From positions 724,582 through 788,581 of the forward strand of contig CP058602.1 of the NCBI GenBank assembly GCA_013426185.1: a stretch of 64,000 bases of DNA, given 5' to 3'. Shown here in pieces: positions 9,420-61,900 of this stretch. This DNA comes from Candidatus Woesebacteria bacterium. GTDB lineage: Bacteria; Patescibacteriota; Microgenomatia; UBA8517. The notes below the pieces were generated by a model. The model saw only the letters and a program-made list of their open reading frames with translations. It was not told the origin of the DNA and ran no database searches. A program made the position numbers and the translations under genes. Numbering within the stretch: position 1 is the stretch's first letter; each line of letters begins with the position of its first letter.

Positions 9420-9705
9420 TTGCGGGGCTGGGGATCGAACCCAGTCTGGAAGATTATGCCTAAAGTTTTCTCCGATTTCTCGAGAGTGTCGGACTATGTC
9501 TTGCCCGTGAGATAAGAAATCTATCTCAAGGGCTTTGGCGTATAGTCTCTACGGATTTTACATTCATGTAAACCGAACGTAATCTTTCCTCGGCGTTGCC
9601 ATGATCAAATAGATTTTAGGTTTCGCCGATATAGCCAAATTTTTCCCCCATTAAATCGAGGGAAGCCCATTTTGAGCCTTCCGTGCAGCCGTACACTACC
9701 CCGCA
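9420..9705 (-). tRNA. tRNA(CAU) (elongator Met or Ile2/lysidine type) interrupted between U33 and C34 by a group I intron
   Basis: 5' exon TGCGGGGTAGTGTACGGCTGCACGGAAGGCT (9705-9675) and 3' exon CATAATCTTCCAGACTGGGTTCGATCCCCAGCCCCGCA (9458-9421) join to a 69-nt cloverleaf with loop CUCAUAA; acceptor TGCGGGG/CCCCGCA. Confidence 0.75.
9459..9674 (-). ncRNA. group I intron (IC3-like, Azoarcus tRNA-Ile intron-like core) inside tRNA(CAU)
   Basis: 5' exon ends in U, intron ends in G (..ACUUUAGG). An internal guide sequence (GGGCUUCC) pairs with the exon end (GGAAGGCU). Core blocks AUCGGCGAAACCUAA, AUGGCAACGCCGAG and CCGUAGAGACUAUACG resemble the Azoarcus/cyanobacterial tRNA introns as I recall them from memory. 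Confidence 0.7.
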
Positions 9706-9800
9706 TGTTAACTATAAAGAACATGCGCATTATACATGGAATTTGGTAGTTAAGCAACCCCCAATGCGTACCAGTATATATAGTATAATATAACTTAAGG

Positions 9801-11011: not shown

Positions 11012-12013
11012 ATGAAACGTGTTTTTTCAGGTTCAAGACCGACGGGGAAGCTTCATCTTGGTAATTACTTGGGTGGGGTTAAAGGTTATTTGGAGCTTGC
11101 TAGAAACCCACAATTTGAGACTATTTATATGGTGATGGATTTGCATGCTGTTACCACTCCTTTTGATAGAAATAGCTTGGCGCAAAATACAAAAGATGTG
11201 ATTTTGGATTACTTAGCCTCGGGCCTTGATCCTGAAAAATCAATAATTACTGTCCAATCGCTTGTTCCTGAGCACACTTATCTTGCTCACTTGATATCAT
11301 CCACAGTAACAGTGGCCCGTATGCTTCACTTGCCGACTTACAAAGAAAAAATAAAACAGTATCCAAAAGAAGCAACTATGGCTCTTTTGAATTACCCAGT
11401 TCTTATGGCGGCTGATATCTTAGCTTACAAGGCGGATCTAGTTCCAGTGGGAGTTGATCAAGAGCCACATCTTGAGGTAGCCCGTGAGATAGCAAGAAAA
11501 ATGAACGAGAAGTATGGCACTAATTTTCCTGAACCAAAAAGATTTGCAACCAAGGGTGAGTACATTCCTTCTTTGACAGGGGAGGGAAAGATGAGTAAAT
11601 CAGTTGAGGGTAGTTACATTAATTTAACTGATTCACTTGAAGAAATAAGGGCAAAATTGGCTCGAGTTCCAACTGATAGTGGTAGTGGTACCACTGTGCC
11701 TCAAGAAGGCGGAGTATTTACCCTTTTGCTTTTCTCTGGTCTTTTTCTTGGCGATGACGCTCAAAAAGAGCTTGAAGCACAATATACATCATCTGGTATT
11801 AGGTACAAAGAACTAAAAGATAGGCTGGCTAGCGCTATTTTTGAAGAATTAAAGCCGATTCAGGAAAGAAGAAAAGAGATAGAATCAAGAAAAGGCTATC
11901 TTGAAGATGTAATTTTGGATGGAGCAAAGAAGGCAAGAAAAATAGCCTCCCAGATATTGGAGGAGACAAGAGAAAAAATGGGATTTATAAGATTGGTAGA
12001 AAGTAGAACGTAG
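11012..12013 (+). CDS. trpS: tryptophan--tRNA ligase
   Basis: class I HIGH-like TGKLHLGNYLG at N-terminus and KMSKS motif. Confidence 0.9.
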   Translation: MKRVFSGSRPTGKLHLGNYLGGVKGYLELARNPQFETIYMVMDLHAVTTPFDRNSLAQNTKDVILDYLASGLDPEKSIITVQSLVPEHTYLAHLISSTVTVARMLHLPTYKEKIKQYPKEATMALLNYPVLMAADILAYKADLVPVGVDQEPHLEVAREIARKMNEKYGTNFPEPKRFATKGEYIPSLTGEGKMSKSVEGSYINLTDSLEEIRAKLARVPTDSGSGTTVPQEGGVFTLLLFSGLFLGDDAQKELEAQYTSSGIRYKELKDRLASAIFEELKPIQERRKEIESRKGYLEDVILDGAKKARKIASQILEETREKMGFIRLVESRT

Positions 12014-12255
12014 TAAGTATAAAGCAAATAAATAGTTAAAAGTTCAAAGTGCAAAGTTAAAAGTTGGAATTTACTATTCTGTAATTTGAAAAATTGGATA
12101 ATTGTAGAATTGTTTAGAATTTAGGATTTGGACCTTGTAATTTGGAGCTTGGAATTTGTTTGTAATTTGTATATTGGAATTTGTAATTTTATTCTATAAT
12201 CCAAAATCTATAATCTAATCATAAAGTTTTGAATTTTAAGTTTTGAGTTATTTTT
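12014..12255. repeat. mosaic AT-rich modular intergenic repeat region (modules shared with 17419-17782, 55064-55542 etc.)
   Basis: contains gtagaacgtagtaagta..., ttgtaatttggagcttggaatttgtttgtaatttg, tctataatccaaaatctataatcta modules; about 230 nt is the reverse complement of 55100-55330. Confidence 0.8.
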
Positions 12256-12603: not shown

Positions 12604-13123
12604 TAGCTGGGACTAGGGAGCTAGTCGGAGTTGGTCGAAGTTAGTCCTCGCTTACAGCGAGGCTGGTCAAAGCTGGTCGGAAGACAGTATCTAGTATCTT
12701 GTATTATGTATTATGGGAACAATGCATTTTCCTGCATAATACTTAATTCATAATACTAAATTCAGTGTTCCTAATTTGTTTGTGATTTGAAAAATTGGAA
12801 AATTGTAATTTGTTTAGGATTTAGAATTTGGAATTTGTATATTGTAATTTGTTTGTAATTTGGAACTTGGAATTTGGAATTTTGATTTTTACTCTTTGTT
12901 CTCTGTTCTAACCTGGTAGGTAAAAGGCAAGAGGTAAAAGAATTCGGATTTCAGCTATCAGCTGTCAGCTGTGGGAGTTAGTTGTTATCTTAATTCATAA
13001 ATCCTAAATCATAAATCAAAATTCTGTAATCTAATTTTTGACTTTTGAGTTTTAAGTTTTGAGTTATACTTTTGACTTTTAATTTTTGAGTTAGCTCGTT
13101 TTTAAGTGTATAATTAGCTGCTT
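12604..13123. repeat. mosaic modular intergenic repeat region including a 110-nt inverted-repeat module (12676-12790)
   Basis: modules tcggaagacagtatctagtat..gtattatgtattatg[GGAACAATGCATTTTCCTG]cataatac..., gaattcggatttcagctatcagctgtcagctg, ggtaaaaggcaagaggtaaaag. Confidence 0.8.
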
Positions 13124-15909: not shown

Positions 15910-16284
15910 ATGGGGAAGATACACCTTTTTTCTGATCTTAATGCCTGGAAAGAAGCTTATGAGCTTGTAATTTTAGTTTATAAACTTACTGATAAATTTC
16001 CTGCTAAGGAAAATTATGCTCTGACTGGCCAGATGAGAAGATCTGCGGTGTCTATATCTAGCAATATTGCTGAAGGGTTTAGTAGAAGAGGCAAAAGAGA
16101 GAAGATTTTGTTTTATTCAACTTCTTTAGGTTCGCTTACCGAGCTTCAAAGTCAGGTATTGATAGCCAAGGGAGTTGGTTATCTGAGCGGGGAGGATGTA
16201 ACTGCCATTAATGAGAGATTAACTGTTGTTCATAAGCTGATAAACGGTTTAATTAAAGGTGTTACAAAATTGCATAATACATAA
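15910..16284 (+). CDS. four-helix-bundle protein (23S rRNA intervening-sequence protein / Avd-like family), located outside rRNA
   Basis: family signature ...RSAVSISSNIAEGF...; gene is bracketed by the two arms of the long inverted-repeat module (15889-15912 and 16270-16300). Confidence 0.7.
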   Translation: MGKIHLFSDLNAWKEAYELVILVYKLTDKFPAKENYALTGQMRRSAVSISSNIAEGFSRRGKREKILFYSTSLGSLTELQSQVLIAKGVGYLSGEDVTAINERLTVVHKLINGLIKGVTKLHNT

Positions 16285-17418: not shown

Positions 17419-17782
17419 TCGGAAGCCAGTATTTAGTATTTTGTATTATGCAGAGAATACAGGTAGAAAGTAGAATGTAGTAAGTAGAAAGCAAATAAAT
17501 AGTTAAAAGTTCAAAGTGCAAAGTTAAAAGAATTCGGATTTCAGCTGTCAGCCGTCAGCTATCAGATTTGAGCGCTATCTAATTCATAAATCTTAAATCC
17601 TAAATCTAGATTCTATGACTTATTTGTAATTTGGAATTTGCCTGCCCGCAATCGCTAAAGCGATAGCTTTTGCAGGCGGGGAATTTGTAATTTTATTCTA
17701 TAATCCAAAATCTATAATCTAGTGTTTTGTGGTAAATTTCAGGTTAAGGAGGTAAAATAGGGGAAAATAAGCAAAACCTTAG
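17419..17782. repeat. mosaic modular intergenic repeat region (left flank of R-M island)
   Basis: modules gtagaaagtagaatgtagtaagtagaaagcaaataaatagttaaaagttcaaagtgcaaag, gaattcggatttcagctgtcagccgtcagc, ggaatttgcctgcccgcaat..gcaggcgggg (also inside 23S at about 56420-56465). Confidence 0.8.
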
Positions 17783-19633
17783 TTGGCAAAAAAAATGAGC
17801 GACAACAATAACCAAGTTGCTGTAGATAAAACAGAGCTTGTCTGGCCCGGGAAGCGTAGGGAAGTTGAGCGAGTGGAGCTTCCGTTTCAGACGATTGAAA
17901 CTATTAATCTTCCGCGTGGTAGGCGACAAGAATCTATCTTTGAAGCAATCCAAAAACAGCAATCTTTGATTTCTCAACCAGAACAACAAATTCTTAGATC
18001 AGAGGAAGGAGAATGGAAAAATCGACTTATTTGGGGTGACAATCTCTTGGTAATGGGTTCGCTTATTAAAGAATTTGCCGGGAAAATTAATCTCATCTAC
18101 ATTGACCCGCCATTTGCGACCGGCGATGATTTTTCCTTTACCGTAAACATCGGCGACCAAGCGGAAATTACCAAAGAGCCGTCCGCGCTGGAAGTAAAAG
18201 CATATCGCGACACGTGGGGCAAAGGCATGCAATCATACCTTCAAATGATGTATGACCGCCTTGTTTTAATGAAAGAGCTTTTGGCAGATAATGGTTCAAT
18301 TTATGTGCATCTGGATTGGCATGTGGGGCATTATGTAAAAATTTTGATGGATGAAATTTTTGGGAGAGATAATTTTAGGAATGAGATTGTTTGGCGTTAT
18401 GGAAAAATGGCAGCTTCATCTAAAAAGTTTTTGTCGAATCATGATGTAATACTTTTCTATACAAAGAGCTATAATTTCACTTTCAATCAGCAATTTATAG
18501 CGTTGGATAAGCCAATTAAAAGATTGGCTAGGACGGTGCGTGATGGGAAACTCGTAAATGTTAAAGATGAAAAAGGTAATTTAGTATATGTCGAAAAGAG
18601 TGACAGAATAGTTGACGATGTCTGGGATGATATTTCTACGGTTATGCATGCCAGCCCTCAATTTCTTAATTTTCCAACACAAAAACCACAGCTACTACTA
18701 GAGCGAATAATCAAAACTTCAAGTAATGAAGGCGATTTAGTAGCTGATTTTTTCTGCGGCTCCGGTACTACTGGAGTTGTAGCAGAAAAACTTGGCAGGC
18801 GGTGGATTATGTGCGATTTGGGGCGATTTGCCATCCACACTACTCGCAAGCGGCTTTTGGATATGGGAGCAAAGCCGTTTGTGGTGCAAAATCTTGGCAA
18901 ATACGAGCGCCACCGCTGGGTGCAACTTAATGGCAGATACAAAGATTACATCAAGTTTATTTTGGAGCTTTATCATGCTGAACCAGTAGAAGGATTTACA
19001 AATTTACATGGCAAAAAAGGAAGTAGTTTTGTTCGCGTGGGAAGTGTTGATGCGCCGGTAACCCTTTCTGAAATCCGTGAAGCCTTGGAAGAATGTAAAG
19101 AAAATAACATCAGAAAATTAGATGTGCTTGGTTGGGAATGGGAAATGGGTTTACATGATTTGGTAAAAGAGGAAGCAGAAAAATATGGGGTAAAACTTGT
19201 GACCCTGCAAATACCGCGAGAGGTTATGGATATTTCTCCGGCGGAAGCAAAAAAACACGACATTCAATTTTTTGAACTTGCTTATTTAGAAGTTGAGCCA
19301 AAAGTTGAAGGTAGGCACGTAACAATTACACTCAAAGATTTTATCATCCCTAATCCTGAATTATTGCCAGAAGAAATAAAAGGCAAGGTAAAAAGTTGGA
19401 GCGATTTTATTGATTATTGGGCAGTGGACTGGATGTTTAATCAGCATGAGGAAGTGACCGAAGAAGATGATACTTTCCATAATATGAACCAGCACTACCG
19501 CACCCGCAAAGAGCCGAAACTGGAACTTTCAATGGGTTACGAATACAAGAATGCCGGAAAATACAATGTGTTAGTAAAAGTAATAGATATATTTGGAAAT
19601 GACACCACCAAGCTTATACAAATTAAAGTTTAG
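17783..19633 (+). CDS. mod: Type III-like restriction-modification Mod subunit (beta-class N6-adenine DNA methyltransferase)
   Basis: motif IV IYIDPPF precedes motif I FCGSGTTGVVAEKLGRRWIMCD (IV-before-I order). Confidence 0.7.
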   Translation: MAKKMSDNNNQVAVDKTELVWPGKRREVERVELPFQTIETINLPRGRRQESIFEAIQKQQSLISQPEQQILRSEEGEWKNRLIWGDNLLVMGSLIKEFAGKINLIYIDPPFATGDDFSFTVNIGDQAEITKEPSALEVKAYRDTWGKGMQSYLQMMYDRLVLMKELLADNGSIYVHLDWHVGHYVKILMDEIFGRDNFRNEIVWRYGKMAASSKKFLSNHDVILFYTKSYNFTFNQQFIALDKPIKRLARTVRDGKLVNVKDEKGNLVYVEKSDRIVDDVWDDISTVMHASPQFLNFPTQKPQLLLERIIKTSSNEGDLVADFFCGSGTTGVVAEKLGRRWIMCDLGRFAIHTTRKRLLDMGAKPFVVQNLGKYERHRWVQLNGRYKDYIKFILELYHAEPVEGFTNLHGKKGSSFVRVGSVDAPVTLSEIREALEECKENNIRKLDVLGWEWEMGLHDLVKEEAEKYGVKLVTLQIPREVMDISPAEAKKHDIQFFELAYLEVEPKVEGRHVTITLKDFIIPNPELLPEEIKGKVKSWSDFIDYWAVDWMFNQHEEVTEEDDTFHNMNQHYRTRKEPKLELSMGYEYKNAGKYNVLVKVIDIFGNDTTKLIQIKV

Positions 19634-19733
19634 TCAAAGTCATTGCCTGCCCCGTAGTCAGCTTTGCTGTACTACTGGGGATATCTTTGGCAATGACACG
19701 ACGAAATTAATTGAAGTTAAGGTTAAATAATCT

Positions 19734-22508
19734 ATGTCAGACACGACAACAAAACCATATAGAGGTTCGGAGTGGAAGAAGTGGGATTTACAAATCCACA
19801 CTTATCTCGATCCTAACTGGAAGTGGCCTTCTGGATACCCAAATGGGAACGATCGACAGCAAGAGCGTATTGCCAAGTTTGAGAACGACTTTATACGGCA
19901 TTGCATTGAAAATCGAATTGAAGGCGTAGCCATAACCGACCACAATGCTGGCGACGCTATAGATGGCTTATTGGTAAAAAATAGAGAACTTGGAAACAAA
20001 GTCACTATCTTGCCCGGGGTAGAAGTTGCAAGCGACGGAGGTACACACCTACTTATAATTTTTGACCCTTCATCTTTTATTAGAAAAAATCGTTGGAATA
20101 CATGGCGAGAAACAGTAGACCATTTCTTAACCGCAATTTTTACAGACAACCCCCGATTTGAGGAACAGAACGGAAGAAATACTCCACTCAATCCTGCTTC
20201 ATCTATTGACCAAATTATCAAGAAAGCAAAAGAGTATTCTGCGATTGTGATTTTTCCTCATGTTTTTTCGCAAGGAACAGGTTTGTTTAGTTGTGACTCA
20301 CGAACTCGCAAAAGGGTTTTGAAAACCTGCAATATTCTGGATATCGCTTGTGTGCAAAGAGACATACAAAAGAAAACAGATGAAGCGAACCGAAAACTTA
20401 CCGGACAAGGTTTCGATTCTAATGATTTTGCTTTTATAAACACTTCTGACTCCCGCAGAATTGAGGATGTCGGTTCAAAGTTCACTTGGATAAAAGCAGA
20501 TGCTACTTTTGAGGGACTGCGACAAATTATCCACGAACCAAAGACACGTGTCAGTATACAAGAAAATCCTCCTTTGTATTTACACCCGCAAATTATTTCT
20601 GCAAAGTTACTCAATGCAAGTAGTTATCAATCCAAGAAAAGCGATTTTCCACCGATTACGCTAACCAAGGAAATATTTTTTAGTCCAAACTTAACTACAA
20701 TTATTGGCCCGAGAGCGGCTGGAAAAACTGTTTTAGTTGAGCTTATCGGTTATGTAGCGAATAGGTTTTCAACGGATAAAAGAGACAAGAAACTCCCATT
20801 GGTGGAATTTTTAAGTAAAGAGTTTTCTGACATTGAAATAGAGGTAACTTTTCAGAGTGGCGCCGAAGAAGTTACCACACTGAAACGTCCGGTGAAGGAA
20901 TGGAACGACCCTTTTTACACTTCGCCTTTCAAAATTGAGTATTGGGCGCAGGGCGAAATCGAGAGAATAGCAAATAGTTCTAATCAAATATCTGATTATA
21001 TTGAGCAAAATTGGCTTAATTCTGATTTCCTCACCAAAACAAAAAGGGAAATAGAAACTTTGCAGAAAGAGATGAAATCTTTGAGAGGTAACTACTCTAA
21101 CAAACTACAAATAGAGATTGAGAAGAAAAAACTTGAAGCCGAGCGTAAACAAATTGAGGCGTACTTCAACAAATTGAAGGCAGAAGAATACAAGCAGATT
21201 ACTGGAAAGATAAAGGAGAACAGGGTAAAGCGTCAGATGATTGAGGGCTTAGTTCAGGACATTAAGAACCAAGCTGCCCTTCTTAAAAATCTTGCGGTAC
21301 AGGTTAGGTTTTTCAGCACGGTTGATAAAGACAAGGTTTTGGAGCTTTTTAGTGCACGGGATCCGTTGAGAAAAAAGATTGAAGGATTTTATCAACTTAA
21401 GGAAACACAACTGGATGCCATCGTTACTGATTTGGAAACGACAGCGAAAGCAATTGAGGACTCGGATGTTAAAAAATCACTTGATAAAGAAAACACGGAA
21501 CTTATCAAGCAGTTTACTGATTACTGTAAAACTAACGGCATTATGATTAGTAAGGGAGAGGTAGAAAAGCGAAATGATAGGATTAAATTCATTGACCAGC
21601 AAGTATCCAAACTAGAAAGCCAACTCCAAAAATTTGAAGGTGATCAAAAACGACACGGGCAACTTGCTGCTGAATTGAGCACAAAACTAAAACTCTGGGA
21701 AAAAGAAAATAATAAACTCATCAATGGATTCAACAGACAATTTGGGAACACGCAAATTTCCGCCTTTTGGAATAATCCAGCGAGTGAGATTGCTGGCTGG
21801 ATAAAAGCGCAATTTCTAGATTCAAACTCGAATCTGAAAGGATTAATTGAAAAAAACTTTAAGACAAAATCACCGGTGCGAGAAGATTATCTTGCGGATA
21901 TCATAGATGAATTGGTTGATAAGTATGGTGATAAAGCGCGAGAAGAAATTGCTTCTATTCTTAAACAAAACAAAGCGCCAAAACTACAAGATAGTAGTGG
22001 AAAAACGGAAACTATACGCTGGTTTTTTGAAGATGAGAATACAAAGCCTATTCGGGAAGATATTATTATGAGGCTAAATGAGTATGCTGAAACGGGCAAC
22101 AATTATATCAAATACGGAAATAAGGTGCTCGGCAAGGACAGTATGTCTTTTGGTGAACGGTGTGGGACACTTGTTGAACTTATACTGCTGTCCGGCGACC
22201 ATCCATTAATTATTGACCAGCCAGAAGATCACTTGGACGCAAAATTCGTGGCGGAAAGAGTCGTTACTTTAATTCGGGAACAGAAGCCTAATAGACAAAT
22301 TATTATCTGTACGCACAATGCAAATATAGTCGTATTGGGTGATTCGGAATTAGTAACTGCGTTAGCGGTAAGTAGTCGAGACAAAGTAAGTATCGAACAA
22401 GGTTCTCTGGAAAATATCCAGATGAAAAAAACAATTTTTGATGTTTTGGAAGGTGGCGAAAGTGCCTTTAAGAAACGTGAGCAAAAATATGGCGAAGCAA
22501 TCAGCTAA
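19734..22508 (+). CDS. PHP-family phosphoesterase fused to coiled-coil ABC/SMC-like (OLD/AAA15-type) ATPase; Ppl-like defence protein
   Basis: N-terminal His-rich PHP blocks (IHTYLDP, AITDHN, THLLIIFD, FPHVFS), Walker A GPRAAGKT, long coiled coil, C-terminal Walker B/D-loop LIIDQPEDHLD and ICTHNAN. Confidence 0.55.
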   Translation: MSDTTTKPYRGSEWKKWDLQIHTYLDPNWKWPSGYPNGNDRQQERIAKFENDFIRHCIENRIEGVAITDHNAGDAIDGLLVKNRELGNKVTILPGVEVASDGGTHLLIIFDPSSFIRKNRWNTWRETVDHFLTAIFTDNPRFEEQNGRNTPLNPASSIDQIIKKAKEYSAIVIFPHVFSQGTGLFSCDSRTRKRVLKTCNILDIACVQRDIQKKTDEANRKLTGQGFDSNDFAFINTSDSRRIEDVGSKFTWIKADATFEGLRQIIHEPKTRVSIQENPPLYLHPQIISAKLLNASSYQSKKSDFPPITLTKEIFFSPNLTTIIGPRAAGKTVLVELIGYVANRFSTDKRDKKLPLVEFLSKEFSDIEIEVTFQSGAEEVTTLKRPVKEWNDPFYTSPFKIEYWAQGEIERIANSSNQISDYIEQNWLNSDFLTKTKREIETLQKEMKSLRGNYSNKLQIEIEKKKLEAERKQIEAYFNKLKAEEYKQITGKIKENRVKRQMIEGLVQDIKNQAALLKNLAVQVRFFSTVDKDKVLELFSARDPLRKKIEGFYQLKETQLDAIVTDLETTAKAIEDSDVKKSLDKENTELIKQFTDYCKTNGIMISKGEVEKRNDRIKFIDQQVSKLESQLQKFEGDQKRHGQLAAELSTKLKLWEKENNKLINGFNRQFGNTQISAFWNNPASEIAGWIKAQFLDSNSNLKGLIEKNFKTKSPVREDYLADIIDELVDKYGDKAREEIASILKQNKAPKLQDSSGKTETIRWFFEDENTKPIREDIIMRLNEYAETGNNYIKYGNKVLGKDSMSFGERCGTLVELILLSGDHPLIIDQPEDHLDAKFVAERVVTLIREQKPNRQIIICTHNANIVVLGDSELVTALAVSSRDKVSIEQGSLENIQMKKTIFDVLEGGESAFKKREQKYGEAIS

Positions 22509-24981
22509 ACAACAATCGGCATTGCCTCTTGTCCGCGCGTTGCAGCCGGTGGTGGCGGCGTGGCGCGAGGGTGGATACAAAGAAGGCACGAGTGAGACAA
22601 CTCGGCGGCTTTTGGAGTGGTGGTTTTGGGAAGACCACGAATTTGCCGACGGAAAACCTTTTGCTTTTTGGCAAGCGCAAAGAAAAGCGATTGAAAATTT
22701 GATTTATTGCTACGAAGTTTTAGAAACGCGCAGTTTGTATCAGTTAGCGCAACGGCTTGATGCAAGGATCCCAGTTGATCCCAGTTCAGATAAATGGGCA
22801 AAATACGCTTTCAAAATGGCAACAGGTTCAGGCAAAACAATGGTGATGGCAATGGCAATTGTTTGGTCATATTTTAATGCGATAAAAGAAAAGCGAGACG
22901 ATTTTACAAAAAATTTTGTGCTTATTGCGCCAAACTTAATTGTGCTTGATCGTTTAATGGGTGATTCAAAAAATCCAGAATTTTTTGAAGGTGGGATTTT
23001 TAAGAAATTTCCTTTTATTCCACCAGAATGGTCATCAGATTTTCAGCTTGATGTCATCGGGCCTGACGAGGAGCGGGAAAGCACTAAACCTGCGACACTT
23101 TATCTTTTAAACTGGCAAAAATTTGTTGAGCGAGAAAACGGTGAAACAGAAAATCCAGTGCAGGATATTTTGGGCCCAAAACCGCCGAGCGAAATTGCTG
23201 TTTCTTTGGCAAAACTCAAAGACAGATTGTCTCGTCTTTCAAATGTGATGGTAATAAATGATGAAGCGCATCGCGTTTGGAGTGAAGAGCTGGTTTGGTA
23301 CAAAGCGATTGAAAATATGTACAATACTGCAGGTCTTATGTGCCAACTTGATTTTTCGGCAACACCAAAAGACCAACAAGGAAATTTATTTACTCATATT
23401 ATTACTGATTATGATTTGGGAAGTGCAATTGAAGATAATATTGTCAAGCGCCCCAAAATCGCCGAGCTTGAAAACGTGCCAGAAATTGAAAGTAAAAAAG
23501 CATCTGAAAAATATCGTGTTCAAATTGATGCAGGTATTAAGCAGTGGAAAATAATGAGAAAAGCGCTTGCTCCAACAGGCAAAAAGCCGGTAATATTTTT
23601 TGTTACAGAAGATAATAAAGCCGCTGATGAAGTTGCTGAATATCTGCAGACGTTTCCTGAATTTAGCGGAGACAAAACTTTAACTATTCATTCCAGTAGA
23701 GCAAAAGATCAGATTGCTGAAAAAGATTTAGCAAAAGCCCGAAAAGCGGCTCGTGAGATTGACTTGCCAAATAATCCTCATAATGCAATTGTTTCAGTTT
23801 TGATGCTTCGTGAGGGTTGGGATGTAAAAAATGTAGTTGTGGTTGTGCCTTTGCGGTCTTTTAGCGCTAAAGCAAAAATTTTTCCAGAGCAGACACTTGG
23901 TAGAGGTTTGCGCAAAATGTGGCCGGAGCAAAAAGATTTAATAGAGGAATTAATTGTTATAGAGCATCCCGAGTTCCATAATTTAATTGAGCAGGCTCTT
24001 GCTGAACAAGGAGTAAAAATTGAATTTACAAAAATTGATGAAGCATATACACCACCAATTATCATTCAAGTTGAAAAGGGTAAGGAAAAGTTTGATATAG
24101 AAGTGCCAATGCTTTCCGGCGGACTGACACATTCTGTAAAAGGAATTGAGAAATTACAAGCAAGTGCTTTAGAAAAGGGTTTATTTGATTACGACTCTTT
24201 GCAGGCGCGAGATGTTGTGATGCGTAAGGTGGATATGCTCACAAAGAAAGAGGAGGGAAAAGAAATATTAGAATTTCCCTATGCTGATAATCCCCAGATT
24301 TATATTGCAAGTATTGCTAATGCAGTTTTGCGGTTTGCGCGAATACCAGGACATTTTGATAAAATTGCCCCAATTGTTAAGGAATACATTGAAAAATATC
24401 TTTTTGAGAGAGAAGTTAATGTTGAAAGTCTTGAGACATTAAAAAAACTTAATCATCCAAAAGTACGCAGCGCAATAGTTTCTGTTCTTGTCGATGCCAT
24501 AAACAATTTGACAGTAGTCTCAGAAGAGATGAAGCTTGAAAATCGAAGGTCGTGTGCATCAGAAATTAAACCTTTTCCGTGGACAAAAGTTGCTGTAGTA
24601 GCGCAAAAGTGCATATTGAATTTTGTACCAGTTGATAATGATTTTGAAGCGAAGTTTGTGAGATTTCTTGATGGAGCAAATGATGTTGATGCTTTTATTA
24701 AGAACGAAACACGAACAATCAATCTTAAGATTCCGTATATTGCCAAGGACGGATTTTTGCGTCGCTACATTCCCGATTTTATCGTTAAAACGAAAAATGC
24801 AACAGCAATTGTAGAAACAAAGGGACGTGAGGACGTTGACGTGGCGGCGAAGGATTTGCAAGGTAAAAGATGGTGTGAGGAGCTTGGCAAGCGAACTGGA
24901 ACAAGATGGATGTTCTTGCGCATTGACCAAAAGGAATTTGAAAAAGCGAGGTATAACAAGTTTGCAGAATTGATAATCTGA
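22489..24981 (+). CDS. res: Type III-like restriction enzyme Res subunit (SF2 helicase + PD-(D/E)xK nuclease)
   Basis: Helicase motif I (TGSGKT), DEAH box (VINDEAHR) and motif III (SATP), plus a C-terminal nuclease block (IPDF...VETKG). The start was chosen at ATG 22489 (MAKQSAKQQ), overlapping the upstream stop by 20 nt; the longer ORF from 22438 was not used. Confidence 0.7.
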   Translation: MAKQSAKQQSALPLVRALQPVVAAWREGGYKEGTSETTRRLLEWWFWEDHEFADGKPFAFWQAQRKAIENLIYCYEVLETRSLYQLAQRLDARIPVDPSSDKWAKYAFKMATGSGKTMVMAMAIVWSYFNAIKEKRDDFTKNFVLIAPNLIVLDRLMGDSKNPEFFEGGIFKKFPFIPPEWSSDFQLDVIGPDEERESTKPATLYLLNWQKFVERENGETENPVQDILGPKPPSEIAVSLAKLKDRLSRLSNVMVINDEAHRVWSEELVWYKAIENMYNTAGLMCQLDFSATPKDQQGNLFTHIITDYDLGSAIEDNIVKRPKIAELENVPEIESKKASEKYRVQIDAGIKQWKIMRKALAPTGKKPVIFFVTEDNKAADEVAEYLQTFPEFSGDKTLTIHSSRAKDQIAEKDLAKARKAAREIDLPNNPHNAIVSVLMLREGWDVKNVVVVVPLRSFSAKAKIFPEQTLGRGLRKMWPEQKDLIEELIVIEHPEFHNLIEQALAEQGVKIEFTKIDEAYTPPIIIQVEKGKEKFDIEVPMLSGGLTHSVKGIEKLQASALEKGLFDYDSLQARDVVMRKVDMLTKKEEGKEILEFPYADNPQIYIASIANAVLRFARIPGHFDKIAPIVKEYIEKYLFEREVNVESLETLKKLNHPKVRSAIVSVLVDAINNLTVVSEEMKLENRRSCASEIKPFPWTKVAVVAQKCILNFVPVDNDFEAKFVRFLDGANDVDAFIKNETRTINLKIPYIAKDGFLRRYIPDFIVKTKNATAIVETKGREDVDVAAKDLQGKRWCEELGKRTGTRWMFLRIDQKEFEKARYNKFAELII

Positions 24982-25252
24982 CTTTACCCACCGCCGACTT
25001 TTCCGCCTTGCGCCAATCCATACTAGCGCAAGCATTTAATCAAAGTAAAGAATTCTGATGTTTCATTCGTTGTAATTTATAGTTTTATTCGTTAAAGTTT
25101 TTTCTAAAGTTCTATTGAACGATTAACTTTTGTTATGTTTTGTCATTAATCGGGTGATTGTAGTTTGTCTATTGTTTGGAATTTGTAATTTCATTCGATA
25201 ATCTATAATCCAAATTCTATAATCAGAGTTTTGGGTTTGGTATAATACTCTT
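24982..25252. repeat. modular repeat region (right flank of R-M island), ends in TGGTATAAT extended -10 7 nt before mutM ATG
   Basis: modules ttggaatttgtaatttcattcgataatctataatccaaattctataatc; TGgTATAAT at 25238-25246. Confidence 0.6.
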
Positions 25253-28593: not shown

Positions 28594-28904
28594 TTTTTTG
28601 TCTCTTTTTCTGCTAACTTACTCAGATTGTAGGTTACAATAACAGCCAGAAAAGTTATTGTTATTGCGTAAATTATTAAAGATATTAGTCCTGATTCTTT
28701 ACCAAAGAGCGGCCTGATGTAATTATTTACAGTTTCTTTGATTACCTCGTTCCAGGCGAGGGCGGCAACAAGACCAAAACCTGAAGTTGCTAAATCCAGA
28801 GTCTTTTTAACAAATTGCCTTCTGACAGCATATGCTTCTTGGATAGCTTTTTTAATTGCTTCCTGTTTTTTAACCTCTTTTTCGTATATTTTGTCTTTTG
28901 CCAT
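28590..28904 (-). CDS. hypothetical small membrane protein
   Basis: ORF with two hydrophobic segments. Confidence 0.35.
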   Translation of the reverse strand: MAKDKIYEKEVKKQEAIKKAIQEAYAVRRQFVKKTLDLATSGFGLVAALAWNEVIKETVNNYIRPLFGKESGLISLIIYAITITFLAVIVTYNLSKLAEKETKN

Positions 28905-28963
28905 AGTTTTATTTTAGCAAAATTATTACCGCATTTCTTGCAGAAAAAATGTTATAATCAAAC

Positions 28964-30029
28964 TATGTACCAGCCTAAATACACAATTACCAATAAGATT
29001 CTTACTAACATTGGCAAGATTGAAGCGGCAAAAGAGGTAATTGAGAATGCTCCTTTAGTTCCTTCTTTTGAGAAGCAGTTTCAGTCAGATGCTTTTGTAA
29101 GAACTGTTCACCATGGCACCCATATTGAAGGCAATGATCTTTCACTTCTTCAGACAAGAAAGGTTTTGGAGGGGGAGGCAATAGTTGCCAAACACAGAGA
29201 TATTCAAGAGGTAATAAATTACAGAAATGTGGTTGAACTTTTGGAGGAACTTGCTTTCAAAAAGGGTGGGTATGAAATTGAGATGATAACTGAAATTCAT
29301 CGTCTGACTACTGACAAATTGGTGAGTGATGAGGAAAAAGGAGTTTTCCGCAAAGTGCAGGTGGTTGTTAAAAATGAAGAGACGGGAGAAGCAATTCTTA
29401 AGCCCCCTGCTTTTGTAGAGGTGCCGCACTTAATTGGGAAGTTGATGGAGTTTTTGAATAGTGATCTTGCTAAAGAGATTCATCCTGTTCTTTTGGCTGG
29501 CATTACTCATTATTTTTTGGTTGCTGTTCACCCTTTTGTTGAGGGAAATGGGAGGACTGCCCGCGCCTTTTCTACCCTGGTTTTAATTAAAAGCGGCTAT
29601 GATATTAAGCGTTTCTTTTCTCTTGAAGAACATTTTGACAGTGATCCTCTAGCATATTACCAAGCCCTAGCTGAAGTTGATAAACAAGCAGTTGATGTAA
29701 GAGAGCGAGATCTAACATCTTGGCTTGAATATTTTACAGGAGTTGTTGCAATTGAGCTTGAGAAAGTAAAAGAAAAGGTTCGTCGTATTTCGCTTGATAC
29801 AAGGTTTAAGCTCAAAGTAGGAACACAAGTAGCTTTGACGGAGCGCCAGATGAGGTTGATTGAGTATATTTCGGATCGTGGAGGTGCTGGAATGAAGGAA
29901 TTAAGGAATGTTTTGAAGATGGTTTCAGAGGATACAATCTTGAGAGACTTAAGAGTTTTGCTTGAGAAGGGTATAATCAAAAAGGAAGGATCGACTAAAG
30001 CATCAAGATATGTAATTGCTGGAAAATAA
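28964..30029 (+). CDS. Fic family protein (AMPylator-type fold)
   Basis: Fic motif HPFVEGNGRTARA; start chosen at MYQPKY (28964), not the upstream-extended ORF. Confidence 0.8.
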
Positions 30030-30234: not shown

Positions 30235-30504
30235 TAAATAGGCGAAGTTGGTCGGAAGGTTGTATTTATATCTTGTATTATGCAGGGAATACAAGTAGAA
30301 AGCAGAACGTAGTAAGTAGAAAGCAAAATTAATAAATAGTTAAAAGTTGTGTATTATCCTTTCTACTTTATACTTACTACTTTCTACTAATTTTAAGTTT
30401 TGACTTTTAAGTTTTAAGTTAGGTTGTACTTTGGATTTTGGGATTTGGAATTTTATTCTATAATCTATTTTCCCCTTATCTCTTTTCCCCAGATTTAGTA
30501 TAAT
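30235..30504. repeat. mosaic modular intergenic repeat region containing an inverted pair of the GTAGAAAG module
   Basis: caagtagaaagcagaacgtagtaagtagaaagc ... cctttctactttatacttactactttctac (reverse complement), tttggattttgggatttggaattttattctataatc. Confidence 0.8.
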
Positions 30505-37601: not shown

Positions 37602-37837
37602 GCGAAGCGAAAATCTCTTATGTGGAAGCTTTCTCGCCTGAGGGGCGAGAAAGCTGAAACACAAGAGGAGCGCAAGCTTTAGCTGAGAACTCTTATGTGG
37701 AAGCTTTCGCAGCTGAAAGCTGCGAAAGCAGACACGCAAGAGCCGCGCAGGCCCTAGGCCGAGAATCTTATGTGGAAGACAAGCGAGCTTAAAAAGCGAG
37801 CGAAGCTTACACACAAGAGGAGTTGAGCAAAGCTTAG
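37543..37837 (+). repeat. tandem array of four 75-nt units (TTATGTGGAAG - 12-bp hairpin - ACACAAGAGGAG - variable tail)
   Basis: Unit starts at 37543, 37618, 37693 and 37768, an exact 75-nt period. The hairpin cores differ between units but stay complementary (CTTTCTCGCC/GGCGAGAAAG versus CTTTCGCAGC/GCTGCGAAAG). Confidence 0.8.
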
Positions 37838-42353: not shown

Positions 42354-42677
42354 CACATTAACTTAAAACTTAAAAGTCAAAAGTATAACTCAAAACTTAA
42401 AACTCAAAAGTCAAAAATTAGATTATAGATTTTGGATTAGAGATTAGAGAATAAAATTCCAAATCCCAAGCTCCAAATTACAAACAAATCACAGAATCTA
42501 GATTTAGGATTTAAGATTTATGAATTAAGATAGCAATCAACTCCGACAGCCGACGGCTGATAGCTGAAATCCGAATTCTTTTACCTTTTACCTCTTGCCT
42601 TTTACCTATTCTTGATACTTGATTCGTGATACTTGTATGTCTCGTTTGTGCTATCATAATATTGAGTTTTACAAAAC
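42354..42677. repeat. mosaic modular intergenic repeat region (reverse-complement modules)
   Basis: reverse complements of ttgagttttaagttttgag, tctataatct, ttggaatttg, gaattcggatttcagctatcagccgtcggctgtcgg, ggtaaaaggcaagaggtaaaag, and the cgtgatac/caagtatcaag module. Confidence 0.8.
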
Positions 42678-49557: not shown

Positions 49558-50008
49558 CGAACAGTTAACTGTTAACAATTAACAAATTAACCAATTAAGA
49601 ATAAAATAAGCTGTGGAAACTTTTAGGTTTTTGAATTTTAAAGTTTACGAAGATAGTAAATCTTTTTACAAGAAATGTATTTTGTTGACTAGAAGCTTTA
49701 AGAGGGATTACTGGGAGCTTAAAGACCAACTTTTGAGAGCTGCTCTTTCAGTTTGTCTTAATATAGCCGAAGGTTCAGCAAAATATTCAGATAAAGATTT
49801 TAAACGATTTTTAGAGAATTCTTTGGGATCAATTAATGAGTGTTTAGCTTGTTTAGATATTGCTTTGGAAAATAGAATAATTTCTAAGATTGAATTCACT
49901 AGACTTCAGAAAGAAGCAGAGTCAATTGCAAAGCAACTAGGAGGTTTGATAAAGAAACTCCGCAATTCTTCTTAGTTGTTAATTTTGTTAAATTGTTAAT
50001 TTGTTAAA
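49558..50008 (+). other. 16S helix-6 intervening sequence carrying an ORF, closed by a long AT-rich stem
   Basis: rRNA stem TCCGCAGGACCG / GGTTCTGTCCTGCGGA flanks the insertion; extended complementary arms gaacagttaactgttaacaattaacaaattaacc / ggttaatttgttaattgttaac... Confidence 0.7.
49613..49975 (+). CDS. four-helix-bundle protein (rRNA intervening-sequence protein / Avd-like) encoded inside the 16S intervening sequence
   Basis: family signature ...LRAALSVCLNIAEGSAKYS...; paralog of 15910..16284. Confidence 0.7.
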   Translation: METFRFLNFKVYEDSKSFYKKCILLTRSFKRDYWELKDQLLRAALSVCLNIAEGSAKYSDKDFKRFLENSLGSINECLACLDIALENRIISKIEFTRLQKEAESIAKQLGGLIKKLRNSS

Positions 50009-50869
50009 GGTTCTGTCCTGCGGATAGTCGCGAACGGCTGAGTAACATGTAAGAACCTACCCAGAGGTGGGGAATACCCCCGCGAAAGCGGGGCTAATAC
50101 CGCATACGCTGCGTAGCAGCGAACTTTCAACACGCTCACACTGTGAGCTTCCAACAAACAAAAGACAACTTAATATTAGAGTTGTAAGTTGATTGTTGTT
50201 AGTTGAAGGTTGGCTGCTACGCAGCAAAGGGCGTAACTGCCCGCCTGTGGAGGGGCTTGCACACCATCAGCTAGTTGGTAGGGTAATGGCCTACCAAGGC
50301 TACGACGGTTAGGGGAGATGAGAGTCTGTTCCCCCAGAATGGGACTGAGACACGGCCCATACACCTACGGGTGGCAGCAACTGGGAATCGTGCGCAATGG
50401 GCGAAAGCCTGACGCCGCGACGCCGCGTGTGGGATGAAGGCCTTAGGGTTGTAAACCACTTTTGCCAAGTACCATACGGCACTTGGCGAATAAGCACCCG
50501 CTAACTACGTGCCAGCAGCTGCGGTAATACGTAGGGTGCGAGCGTTACCCGGATTTATTGGGCGTAAAGAGTACGTAGGCGTTCTGGTAAGTCACATTTT
50601 AAAGACTGAGGCTCAACCTCAGGAGTGGATGTGATACTGCCAGAATCGAAGAACTTAGGGGCTACTGGAACTTATCATGTAGGGGTGAAATCCGTTGATA
50701 TGATAAGGAACGCCAAGGGTGAAGACAGGTAGCTGGGAGTTTCTTGACGCTGAGGTACGAAAGCTAGGGGAGCGAAAGGGATTAGAGACCCCTGTAGTCC
50801 TAGCCGTAAACTTATGCTCGCTAGCCCTGTGCCATATGGCGCGGGGTGTAAGCTAACGCGTTAAGCGAG

Positions 50870-50919
<50 letters not shown>

Positions 50920-51395
50920 ACCTGCACAACCAGTGGAGCATGTGGTTTAATTCGAGACGAACCGAAGAACCTTACCCGGGTTTGACATTCTACCGTTTTA
51001 GTTTTCCAGAAATGGAGAGCGATCCTTAAGAAATTAAGGAAGGTAGAACAGGTGTTGCATGGCTGTCGTCAGCTCGTGCCGTAGGGTGTTCCCTTCAGTG
51101 GGGTAACGAGCGCAACCCCTGTCCTGTGTTAAATGTTCACAGGAGACTACCCTCCATTCGGAGGGGGGAAGTGGGGACGACGTCAAGTCAGCATGGCCCT
51201 TATGTCCGGGGCGACACACATGCTACAATGGAGCCTAACAATGGGTTGCCAAGCGGTAACGCGGAGCTAATCCCATCAAACGGCTTCTCAGTGGGGATTG
51301 AGGGCTGAAACCCGCCCTCATGAACGCGGAATTGGTAGTAATCGGAGATCAGCCAAGCTCCGGTGAATACGTTCTCAGGTCTTGTACACACCGCC

Positions 51396-52266
51396 AAAAG
51401 ATGCGCGCGTGGCAGTCATATATTCTAGTAAGTTAAAATCTTACCTTTCCTTGATGGTTTACCTTATCATCTTGGAATGTAGCCAAAAAAAAGTGGCAGT
51501 CCTATTGCAAAGTGAGAGCTTTGCTTTTACGGGTAACCGGTAGGACGGAGGGCCTGAGGCAAATGGCAGGGACAACACAAAAATGCTTGGCGACTTCTGC
51601 TGGGCGGTCAGAAGGAAGTCGATTTAAAAGCAGTTGTTCATGCCGGGAACAGAATATATGATGACCCATGGAGATCCTAGAAGGAACGAAGTAATTGCCT
51701 TTTAGGAAGTCAGCATTTCCATAGTAGATAATTGACAGTATACGGAAAATATTCGTATACTTGAATTATCGAAGGGAAATACGTAATGCTTCCAGCTTCA
51801 TATGTTGTTGGACTGACATAAGGCGAGGGATGTTTCCTAGTATCTATTCGAGCTGATAACAGAATCGATTTACGATTTTTTATTGCTCAAGCTGAAGGAA
51901 ATAAACCTCTGCTTTTGATGGTTCAGCAGTTTTTCAAAGTAGGGACTGTTTATCAAAAGAGTGCTAGACGCACTGGTCGTCTTCCCGCTTGGGTATTTGA
52001 AGTCACAAAAAGGGATGATATTTACAATGTCATAATACCTTTTTTCAAACGACATAAACTTTTAGGCTACAAAGCGAAAAGTTTTGATGCTTTTTGCCAA
52101 ATAGCCGAGATGGTTAAGGGAAGGCAGGATGTGCGCAAGCTCTCTAAAGAAGAACTCTCTTTTATTAGGAAGTTGAAGCTGGGGATGAATAAACATTACG
52201 GCTCGCTAAGTGCGGGAAAGCCGCTCGCTTAGTGGGAACGCACGATAACTTCGATGAAGTGCAATC
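51396..52266 (+). other. 871-nt intron-like insertion in 16S at the position equivalent to E. coli about 1400 (between CACACCGCC and CGTCA), containing a degenerate LAGLIDADG ORF
   Basis: flanking exon sequence reconstitutes the universal CCGCCCGTCA decoding-centre sequence; boundaries ambiguous by 1 nt; no canonical group I (U/G) or group II (GUGYG/AY) ends. Confidence 0.55.
51786..52232 (+). pseudogene. LAGLIDADG homing endonuclease remnant with in-frame TAA replacing the acidic codon of the motif (YVVGLT*GEGCF)
   Basis: translation from ATG 51786 read directly; downstream frame continues into ORF 51915..52232. Confidence 0.6.
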
Positions 52267-55063: not shown

Positions 55064-55542
55064 TTGGTGACATTTATTTTATGATAAAAAGGCTTGTTAA
55101 GCAAATGGAAGGATAACTTAAAACTTAAAAGTCAAAAGTCAAAAATTAGATTACAGAATACAGATTAGAGAATAAAGAATAAAATTACAAATTCCAAGCT
55201 CCAAATTACAATATACAAACAATATACAAATTCTAAATTCTAATTTCTAAATTCTAAACAATTCTACAATTATCCAATTTTTCAAATCATAAATTAACTC
55301 AAAACTTAAAAATCAAAATTCAAAAGTTGGGATTAGAACAAAGAGAGTAGAAAGTAGGATGTAGTAAGTAGAAAGCAAAAATACAAAATTAAAGACCACA
55401 CCCCTCCTTTCTACTTTCTGCTTACTACTTTCTACTAACTCCCGAATGACTTTGACTAACCTCGCCGTAGGCGAGGACTAACTCTGACTAACTCCGCCAT
55501 AGGCGGAGACCAACTTTGACTAACTTTAACTAAAACCCGCTC
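55064..55542. repeat. mosaic modular repeat region (largest in window) in the 16S-23S gap
   Basis: about 230 nt reverse-complementary to 12040-12250; inverted pair of the GTAGAAAG module (55338-55440); gactaacctcgccgtaggcgaggactaac / gactaactccgccataggcggagacc hairpin pair. Confidence 0.85.
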
Positions 55543-55823: not shown

Positions 55824-55920
55824 CAGGCTCTTTGAAAAGTGAAGAGAATTTTGTCCTATCGCTTTCGTCAAATTAATTTTGGCGGGTAAAGCGAAAGAGA
55901 AAATGGGAAGGCCGTAAAAA

Positions 55921-60055
<4,135 letters not shown>

Positions 60056-60155
60056 TTTTTCCTTTCCTATTTTTCTCTTTCGCTTTGCCAATGGCAAAAT
60101 TCTTTTCACTTTCTCAAGCTTTAGCTTGAGAGTTTAAATTTTAGGTTTGGGCCTT

Positions 60156-60279
60156 TCGGTCTTTAAGAGCTAGGCGGAACCACCTGATCCCATTCCGAAT
60201 TCAGAAGTGAAACGCCTAAGCGCCGACGATAGTTGTCCGGCAACGGACCGCGAAAATAGGCCAAGGCCGAAAGACCCAA
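60156..60279 (+). rRNA. rrf: 5S rRNA
   Basis: CCACCTGATCCCATTCCGAATTCAGAAGTGAAACG core and closing helix GGTCTTT/AAAGACC; ends approximate. Confidence 0.65.
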
Positions 60280-61432: not shown

Positions 61433-61900
61433 TAGATAAAAGGCAAGAGGTAAAAGGTAAAAGAAACCCAAGTAGAAAGTAGTAAGTAGTAAGTAGAAAG
61501 CAAAAGATTGTATCTAGTATTTTGTATTATGTATTATGGGAACAATGCATTTTTCTGCATAATACATAATTCATAATACTAAGTTCAGAATTTTTCCCTT
61601 TGTTCTTTTTTCTAACCTAGTAGGTAAAAGGCGAGAGACTTCAGCTATCGGACATCGGCTATCGGATATCAGGCATCAGATGTTAGCTGTCGGATGTCGG
61701 AATTTGGTCGGAGCCATTATCAAGTATCACGAAGCAAGAATCAAGTATTAAGAATAGTTAAAAGAATTCGGGTCTCAGCTATCAGCTGTCAGCTGTCGAC
61801 TTTTGAAATTTGTAATCGTGGTTGTTGGTTTTCGGATCTTTAGATTGGTAATTATTGAATTATAATTTCTAAATTTCCAATTTTTAATCCTATATTTTAT
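61433..61900. repeat. mosaic modular intergenic repeat region including a full copy of the 110-nt inverted-repeat module (61505-61590)
   Basis: ggcaagaggtaaaaggtaaaag, caagtagaaagtagtaagtagtaagtagaaagcaaaag, tatctagtattttgtattatgtattatgGGAACAATGCATTTTTCTGcataatacataattcataatac, cttcagctatcggacatcggctatcggatatcaggcatcag, gaattcgggtctcagctatcagctgtcagctg. Confidence 0.85.

Follow-up and report, generated by a model that had tools for sequence, protein, structure and literature searches.

A three-gene operon occupies positions 17783-24981 of the window, a stretch of 64,000 nucleotides from Candidatus Woesebacteria contig CP058602.1 (positions 724,582 to 788,581; assembly GCA_013426185.1). In this operon the methyltransferase (Mod) and restriction (Res) genes of a Type III-like restriction-modification (R-M) system are separated by a gene encoding a protein of 924 amino acids. 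The middle gene and its product are called X here, gene orders are written in the form Mod-X-Res, and homologous loci carry L-numbers (L001-L177). X joins a PHP domain to a Rad50/SMC-like ABC ATPase and is a member of the TrlF family, related to the anti-phage protein Ppl. Across the homologous loci compared, the clade of X is recurrently wired to several R-M types in several gene orders, and its R-M-linked members share a degenerate PHP metal site with intact ATPase motifs. These comparisons suggest that X is an undescribed accessory component of restriction, and we put the probability at roughly 45% that it acts after Res as an ATP-gated binder or processor of DNA ends.

Linkage of the middle gene to restriction-modification systems

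The initial annotation had likened the architecture of X to that of the Ppl anti-phage system. The resemblance is real in architecture and homology (PADLOC Ppl, 3e-35, with matches also to AAA_21/SMC_N), but X is not Ppl itself: X scored 175 bits against the NCBIfam Ppl profile (NF042955, Ppl_antiphage; E 1.6e-51), where the cut-off is 1000, and 444.3 bits against the TrlF profile (NF045780, TrlF_fam_ATP; residues 10-920 on profile positions 1-944), where the cut-off is 350. Because the TrlF cut-off was passed and the Ppl cut-off failed, X is classified on these profiles as a TrlF-family, Ppl-related protein and not as Ppl.

Operons with the order Mod-X-Res were found again at loci in which X shares 83% (L084/85), 63% (L086), 59% (L001) and 36% (L091) identity with the window protein, each with abutting or overlapping reading frames and in unrelated genomic surroundings. 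Identities to the window for Mod, X and Res were 71/83/83% in L084, 65/63/57% in L086, 49/36/42% in L091 and 40/33/34% in L013; in these alignments the three genes diverge in parallel, the cassette being inherited as a unit. Gene order was permuted at other loci, reading X-Mod-Res in L013 (a Nitrospiraceae genome) and Mod-Res-X in L094 (a Saccharimonadales contig), L177, L054 (a Berkelbacteria contig) and the Sphingobium plasmid pMI3. In two gammaproteobacterial metagenome-assembled genomes a TrlF-TrlG pair lies inside a Type III-like operon, giving the order Mod-TrlF-TrlG-Res (L067 7428-16808, L044 4957-18373). The linkage recurs down to ~33% identity, and X is not a chance insertion.

The partners are not restricted to Type III systems. 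Close relatives of X were located directly downstream of a set comprising a C-protein, the Tsp45I restriction endonuclease and a methyltransferase, and likewise of MTase-CfrBI, of a HaeII system and of MmeI-like Type IIG enzymes. Other close relatives directly follow an EcoRI-type methyltransferase with a GmrSD_N/HNH enzyme, or an SNF2/PLD helicase with an Eco57I-type methyltransferase, and more distant ones adjoin Type I components. Therefore, of the composite Type III system originally proposed, the recurrent linkage is borne out but the specificity to Type III is lost to neighbours of Type II, Type IIG (MmeI-like) and Type I. A survey of distant relatives covered 80 loci from species-representative genomes, and their upstream neighbours were rich in R-M domains (N6_Mtase, Eco57I, ResIII, Methylase_S, MmeI_Mtase, HSDR_N, N6_N4_Mtase). 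The commonest downstream neighbour in these distant loci was TrlG (Schlafen/AlbA_2 plus HATPase_c_4), present in 28 of the 41 whose neighbours were scanned. A scan of metagenome contigs with X as a single-protein query returned only three loci.

Both halves of the operon also exist apart. On plasmids of Acetobacter, Paenarthrobacter and Arthrobacter, related Mod-Res pairs form plain two-gene systems, and solo TrlF-family genes are found on many enterobacterial (including E. coli) and Pseudomonas plasmids, as well as on viral contigs; 1101 plasmid records of the TrlF family were matched. Since two-gene Mod-Res relatives and solo TrlF genes are both observed, X is, on this distribution, an optional accessory module and not a core subunit. 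An AAA ATPase encoded upstream of the closest plasmid Mod-Res pair (Aminobacter) was considered as a counterpart of X and found to be unrelated to it.

Because the arrangement is found repeatedly, the three genes diverge together and the association persists when gene order is permuted, the comparisons support the view that X belongs functionally with the R-M genes, and we consider it likely that the coupling is a real functional one. The initial annotation had stated that the Ppl system was not known as part of an R-M operon. No paper was found on PHP-ATPases in R-M operons, on co-occurrence of Ppl or on the PHP-site signature described below, in a literature search that had most subscription journals outside its reach; however, the Prokaryotic Genome Annotation Pipeline (PGAP) already labels the third gene of the Mod-Res-X operon on the Sphingobium plasmid a 'TrlF family AAA-like ATPase'. 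Both an NCBIfam family and PGAP annotation therefore already catalogue the genes, and it is their association with R-M systems that is not described.

A second line of evidence comes from the PHP metal site. The ligand columns of X read Q20-I-H22 at the canonical HxH, D69-H70, E97, H105, H176, and D239-S-R241 at the canonical DxH, such that two canonical ligands are substituted in the X clade (Q20 and R241, each in place of His) and D69, H70, E97 and D239 are retained. These two replacements weaken the idea, put forward in the initial annotation, that the PHP domain might act as a nuclease effector. A signature was compiled from the aligned columns at window residues 20, 22, 69, 70, 97, 239 and 241. 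Solo and viral copies carry HHD(H/Y)EDH, the canonical HxH...DxH set. The window protein and its R-M-linked relatives carry Q(H/Q)DHED(R/C) (QxH/QxQ...DxR); TSDSRR is accompanied by QIH in the window and by QVH in the Sphingobium plasmid copy. In TrlG-linked copies the columns read QNDHED(A/K/E/V). An R-M gene was present within 3 kb at 12 of 13 independent loci of the Q..R type, compared with 10 of 79 of the canonical type (Fisher's exact test, ~2e-8). From these alignments we infer that the PHP metal centre has been remodelled, or partly lost, in copies that depend on a partner (Res or TrlG), and that stand-alone Ppl-like copies retain it.

Two canonical-PHP relatives with 37-38% identity lie directly after a PDDEXK_1/Cas4-like nuclease gene (L089 7095-10775, L090 7112-10775). 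Their setting is an integrative element with TraG-like and serine recombinase genes, and no methylase is encoded nearby.

The operon, its products and its surroundings

The initial annotation had described three co-oriented, tightly packed genes with a 100-nt gap and a 20-nt overlap at the ATG at 22489. All of these are present, as are all the motifs it had quoted for Mod, Res and X. Three open reading frames on the same strand fill the interval (17783-19633, 19734-22508 and 22438/22489-24981), and we hold the identities of the three proteins with high confidence. The features of the operon are as follows.

17783-19633 (+): mod, Type III-kind beta-class N6-adenine DNA methyltransferase, 616 amino acids
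19634-19733 (+): mod-X spacer, 100 nt, with a hairpin and a relic of an older mod 3′ end
19734-22508 (+): middle gene X, 924 amino acids, TrlF-family, Ppl-related PHP plus Rad50/SMC-like ABC ATPase
19761-20588 (+): PHP domain of X, ~residues 10-285, degenerate metal-ligand set
19782-19805 and 20442-20459: substituted PHP ligand motifs of X
20589-22505 (+): ABC ATPase head of X split by a coiled coil, from motifs and the predicted model
20706-20729 (+): Walker A of X, GPRAAGKT
20946-20963 (+): Q-loop of X
22143-22166 (+): signature of X, SFGERCG
22206-22238 (+): Walker B of X, IIDQPED
22305-22325 (+): H-loop of X, THN
22489-22508 (+): overlap of the X stop and the res start, 20 nt
22489-24981 (+): res, superfamily 2 (SF2) helicase-like ATPase with a C-terminal PD-(D/E)xK block, 830 amino acids

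The proposed architecture of X, a PHP domain followed by a coiled-coil ABC/SMC-like ATPase, is upheld in agreement by hidden Markov models, a profile search of the PDB, an AlphaFold2 model and Foldseek. The motifs QIHTY, ITDHN, THLLIIFD, FPHVF, GPRAAGKT, LIIDQPEDHLD and ICTHNAN are all present, and those of the ATPase are invariant or nearly so among 23 homologs. The AlphaFold2 model, built with 23 homologs, reached a mean predicted local distance difference test score of 86.5 and a predicted template-modelling score of 0.72. It consists of four parts: a PHP barrel, an N-lobe of the ABC head carrying Walker A, a coiled coil of ~370 amino acids (~residues 416-785; helices 416-782 in the model), and a C-lobe carrying the signature, Walker B and H-loop. 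The limits of the PHP domain were read from the secondary structure of this model. The profile search of the PDB recovered Rad50 heads (5e-10), SMC proteins, PARIS AriA and PHP phosphoesterases; a single-sequence phmmer search of the same database gave nothing useful, and a profile was required. Foldseek matched the predicted structure to the heads of MukB, JetC, SMC, Rad50, Lamassu and AriA and to the PHP domain of RNase AM. Between the profile search and Foldseek, the PHP fold matched 9etk, 7ug9 and 3o0f; no Ppl structure was among the Foldseek matches. The sequence of X contains no CxxC, hence no zinc hook, and the operon contains no gene for a calcineurin-like (Mre11/SbcD) nuclease. Scans with Pfam, NCBIfam and PADLOC detected no HEPN anticodon-nuclease domain in X.

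Mod carries IYIDPPF at residues 105-111 (DPPF at 108-111; 18095-18115) ahead of FCGSGTTG at residues 324-331 (the FxGxG motif; 18752-18775), and this motif order, DPPF before FxGxG, is that of the beta class. It matches Pfam PF01555 (7e-47) and, over its full length, PADLOC MTase_III (PDLC03633, 3e-126), and its best sequence matches in the PDB, 6k0w and 4zcf (EcoP15I Mod), are Mod proteins of Type III systems. Alignment with homologs indicates that the true start is probably the ATG at 17795 rather than 17783. In L084 and L085 (5872-7998), whose operon is 83% identical, Mod is 708 amino acids long and bears an additional C-terminal GIY-YIG nuclease domain (Pfam).

Res, of 830 amino acids from the ATG at 22489 in a frame open from a TTG at 22438, contains helicase motif I (ATGSGKT, 22819-22839), motif II (NDEAH/DEAH, 23257-23271) and motif III (SAT), followed by the C-terminal PD-(D/E)xK block IPDF...VETKG (residues 761-779; 24769-24825). 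It matches Pfam PF04851 (ResIII, 6e-16), with weak C-terminal matches to TnsA-like and RE_endonuc families, and in part PADLOC REase_III (1.7e-22). Res falls below all curated NCBIfam equivalog cut-offs, with 282 bits against 800 for NF046055 (BPTD_3080) and 20 against 564 for NF012027 (PRK15483), and phmmer found no PDB sequence match for it. Taken together, the profile matches support the earlier designation of Mod and Res as Type III-like. A misassigned Type I or Type IIG system was rejected, given the PF01555 match and beta class of Mod, the combination of helicase and nuclease in Res, and the absence of HsdS and HsdM.

The junctions between the genes were compared across the recurring operons. 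The X stop overlaps the res ATG by the same 20 nt in the L084 and L086 operons, and by 32 nt in L091; the overlap is consistent with coupled expression of X and Res. At the other junction, 100 nt separate the Mod stop from the X ATG in the window, and only 2-4 nt separate the Mod stop from the next ATG in L084 and L086. The spacer contains, at ~19678-19730 in frame +1, the peptide GDIFGNDTTKLIEVKVK ending in a stop, then TCT, then ATG. This frame +1 translation corresponds to the Mod C-termini of L084 and L086, and the present Mod ends further upstream, at a diverged copy of this peptide. A hairpin at ~19639-19706, 5′ of the relic, folds at -37.1 kcal/mol (z -4.5) and occurs only once in the window. 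On the comparison of these junctions the 100-nt gap is secondary and the ancestral operon was tightly abutted, and the relic and hairpin suggest the footprint of a past recombination or insertion at the mod 3′ end. A scan for promoters and terminators yielded fewer sites than in shuffled sequence and was uninformative.

The initial annotation had further described the operon as a GC-richer island bracketed by repeat arrays, consistent with horizontal acquisition. The GC content of the operon is 0.392 compared with 0.377 for the rest of the window, a difference of 1.5 points that lies within the spread of the window: other 7.2-kb windows have a mean of 0.378 (standard deviation 0.008, maximum 0.394), and neighbouring genes range from 0.363 to 0.420. 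GC and codon bias were accordingly rejected as evidence for an island. The flanking repeats exist, as heptamer runs of 2.7-4.9 copies, but they are not specific to the operon, with similar repeats in most intergenic regions of the window. A direct repeat of 42 nt (83% identity; 17680-17721 and 25178-25219) that brackets the operon consists of the same heptamer-type material; it is possibly due to chance, is weak evidence of an insertion scar, and was not used. The GC and repeat arguments for horizontal acquisition therefore fail, but mobility is shown by the differing neighbourhoods of the cassette in other genomes and by relatives carried on plasmids and elements resembling integrative and conjugative elements (ICEs).

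In the window the operon is flanked by housekeeping genes. One flank has ftsH and genes for a 5′-3′ exonuclease and a GT4 glycosyltransferase; the other has fpg, a PIG-L deacetylase gene and recF. A 23S rRNA-intervening-sequence protein (PF05635, bAvd-like) is encoded at 15910-16284 (+), just ahead of the glycosyltransferase gene that precedes the operon. A Fic/DOC-domain protein with a C-terminal DeoR-type helix-turn-helix is encoded at 28815-30029 (+), 4 kb 3′ of the operon and past fpg, PIG-L and recF. Different 7-nt tandem repeats, with 3-9 copies each, are dense in intergenic spacers throughout the window, for example at 11996-12249, 12686-13093, 17428-17721, 30293-30453, 42360-42635, 55115-55436 and 61429-61797, and a 75-nt unit is repeated in tandem at 37615-37778 (2.2 copies, 78% matches). 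Ribosomal RNA genes were located at 49967-51469, 55916-60062 and 60155-60272. The 16S and 23S genes are separated by 4.4 kb that include tRNAs and other sequence, and the 23S match extends over 4147 nt compared with a 2925-nt model, corresponding to ~1.2 kb of insertions. A group I catalytic intron lies at 9469-9726 (-) (Rfam RF00028, 60 bits against a gathering score of 50).

A candidate role after restriction and its rivals

In the mechanism that we favour, Mod would methylate host sites and Res would cut unmethylated invading DNA. X, made in step with Res via overlapping or abutting frames, would dimerise on ATP like Rad50/SbcC and engage the DNA ends or cleavage intermediates left by restriction. 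Its remodelled PHP centre, probably binuclear, would then trim the ends, or X would clamp them, precluding repair, religation and replication; restriction would thereby be made irreversible. A position after Res is proposed because breaking unmethylated DNA is a property common to the Type II, IIG and III partners. A modified PHP domain that needed a partner nuclease for the first cut would explain the near-constant restriction-enzyme neighbour, unlike solo Ppl and TrlF. The nearest folds of the X ATPase (Rad50, JetC, Lamassu and AriA) are DNA- and DNA-end-sensing ABC ATPases. E. coli Ppl is reported to be a single-stranded DNA 3′-5′ exonuclease that is inhibited by NTPs and needs 3′-OH ends made by phage homing endonucleases (reviewed in PMC12904381).

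The components of this proposal differ in strength. The specific end-processing step is more tentative than the placement of X after Res as a whole. In an extension that we regard as doubtful, TrlF/Ppl-like proteins of the Q..R subclade would serve restriction as a dedicated second stage: each would be a Rad50-like, ATP-gated sensor of DNA ends, its remodelled PHP domain licensed only by breaks from the linked restriction endonuclease, of whatever type. They would then define a previously unrecognised 'two-stage' class of R-M systems. Several observations weigh against the action of X on ends left by Res. The PHP domain may be catalytically dead, with two ligands replaced in X and three in the QxQ relatives; with a dead PHP domain, trimming of the ends would be excluded. 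One Q..R locus, L176, has no R-M gene nearby. The loci behind the contrast of 12/13 with 10/79 are not phylogenetically independent, and the 10/79 is a lower bound, as the R-M labelling was done by seed-based phmmer, which under-detects Type I systems. Co-divergence and operon structure would also be expected of independent genes travelling as a cassette, and a partner range from Type II to Type III argues against a specific protein contact between X and Res.

Four other explanations were weighed against this one. In the first of these X would be a guard, monitoring the R-M enzyme or sensing anti-restriction proteins such as DNA mimics, and releasing a toxic activity that aborts the infection when restriction is blocked. 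PrrC, an ABC-NTPase with a nuclease within a Type Ic R-M locus, is activated upon R-M inhibition (PMC12707154, PMC3458546), the Ocr sensor AriA ranks with the closest matches to the ATPase part of X in both sequence and fold, and sensing of DNA mimics would be independent of R-M type, in keeping with the mixed partners. However, the PHP domain, which is the sole candidate effector, is the very part that has degenerated in the R-M-linked copies, and the operon contains no separate toxin gene. Moreover, most canonical-PHP relatives are solo, whereas the opposite would be predicted if linkage to R-M genes kept an active toxin silent. We consider a guard function rather unlikely. Also unlikely, in our view, is that X is an independent Ppl-like defence gene which shares the operon for co-regulation and co-transfer, in the manner of a small defence island, and does not interact mechanistically with the R-M system. 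Such independence would agree with the single-gene action of Ppl (PMC11482910, PMC12904381), with how commonly solo TrlF-family genes occur on plasmids and viral contigs, and with the R-M family functioning as a two-gene unit elsewhere. Yet it would leave unaccounted for an association that spans three gene orders, several R-M types and divergence to ~33% identity in parallel, together with overlapping or abutting reading frames and a specific PHP-site signature that tracks R-M linkage.

A role in self-protection, where X as a Rad50/SbcC-like end tether would aid repair of self-inflicted double-strand breaks or restrain Res (restriction alleviation), would suit any R-M type and the Rad50/SMC-like head and coiled coil. 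The PGAP Gene Ontology term 'double-strand break repair' on the Sphingobium homolog, assigned by inference only, points the same way, as may the host: its label (Woesebacteria) places it in the Candidate Phyla Radiation, a group of bacteria with reduced genomes. In contrast, X lacks a zinc hook and a Mre11-type partner, its family sits on plasmids, ICEs and prophages as defence genes do, and the relatives whose phenotype is known act against phage (Ppl) or restrict growth (the Photorhabdus temperature-restriction locus, PMC7554251) and are not repair proteins, all of which makes this role improbable. Finally, X might be a DNA-bridging cofactor and true third subunit, an SMC-like protein joining distant sites or enzyme molecules to stimulate cleavage by Res. 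Type III cleavage of the EcoP15I kind requires communication between two sites, which such a protein could serve with its predicted coiled coil of ~370 amino acids and its expression coupled to that of Res. The same clade nevertheless accompanies simple Type II enzymes (Tsp45I, CfrBI, HaeII, HNH) that need no site communication, and related Mod-Res pairs exist without X; we regard this possibility as very improbable.

R-M is the most widespread bacterial defence, and to our knowledge the ways in which restriction is reinforced or backed up have been worked out in few instances, PrrC and PARIS among them. A conserved, portable ATPase module on Type II, IIG and III systems would be a 'booster' or 'guard' of restriction in general. 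Such a module would also give a function to the large, unstudied TrlF family, which is abundant on clinical enterobacterial plasmids, and would explain how Ppl-like proteins choose their DNA target. The two-stage class, were it real, would extend from Candidate Phyla Radiation bacteria to the plasmids of proteobacteria. In partner-dependent copies two PHP metal ligands are lost in a correlated manner, which provides a sequence marker separating R-M-coupled from solo forms.

Comparison with known systems

With Type III R-M systems of the EcoP15I type the operon shares a beta-class Mod, a Res composed of an SF2 helicase and a PD-(D/E)xK block, and a mod gene ahead of res on the same strand. It differs in having three genes instead of the canonical two, the 924-amino-acid gene lying between mod and res, and in a Res that reaches no curated Type III or BPTD_3080 equivalog cut-off.

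The nearest folds of the X head and coiled coil are found in SbcCD/Mre11-Rad50, Wadjet JetC, Lamassu LmuB and PARIS AriA, and the general logic of an ATP-gated sensor of DNA or DNA ends coupled to a nuclease is common to SbcCD and SMC-type defence systems. In X, however, the nuclease-type domain is in the same chain and is a PHP domain rather than Mre11, Toprim or Cap4, and the operon is without a kleisin or accessory subunits.

Accessory ABC proteins embedded in R-M operons have precedent in PrrC and RloC (PMC12707154, PMC3458546, PMC2610378). Both fuse an ABC ATPase to an effector, as X does; PrrC is embedded in an R-M operon, and RloC has a Rad50-like coiled coil and a DNA-dependent ATPase (PMC3458546, PMC2610378, PMC12707154). 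The effector of X is an N-terminal PHP domain and not a C-terminal HEPN anticodon nuclease, X is without a zinc hook, and no sequence relationship beyond the ABC fold was seen in the Pfam, NCBIfam and PADLOC scans; the resemblance is one of logic only.

TrlF takes its name from the Photorhabdus temperature-restriction locus trlR-trlF-trlG; in the study of that locus the trlF product carried a histidinol phosphatase annotation, and the temperature screen recovered no mutations in the gene (PMC7554251). X passes the family cut-off and has the same architecture of PHP domain, ABC ATPase and coiled coil, and the PHP site is degenerate in the Photorhabdus-type clade too, with the signature QN..D.A. 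The usual partner of the family is TrlG, downstream in 28/41 loci, whereas the partners of X are Mod and Res; phmmer detected no TrlG homolog anywhere in the window, which is also without TrlR.

Ppl is distinguished from X by the equivalog cut-off that X fails, by its stand-alone action and by the two canonical PHP ligands missing from X. The two share a PHP domain and an NTPase in one chain with detectable homology. Ppl is reported to act as an exonuclease on 3′-OH ends that an endonuclease has produced (PMC12904381), and the proposal for X follows this logic, Res being the endonuclease.

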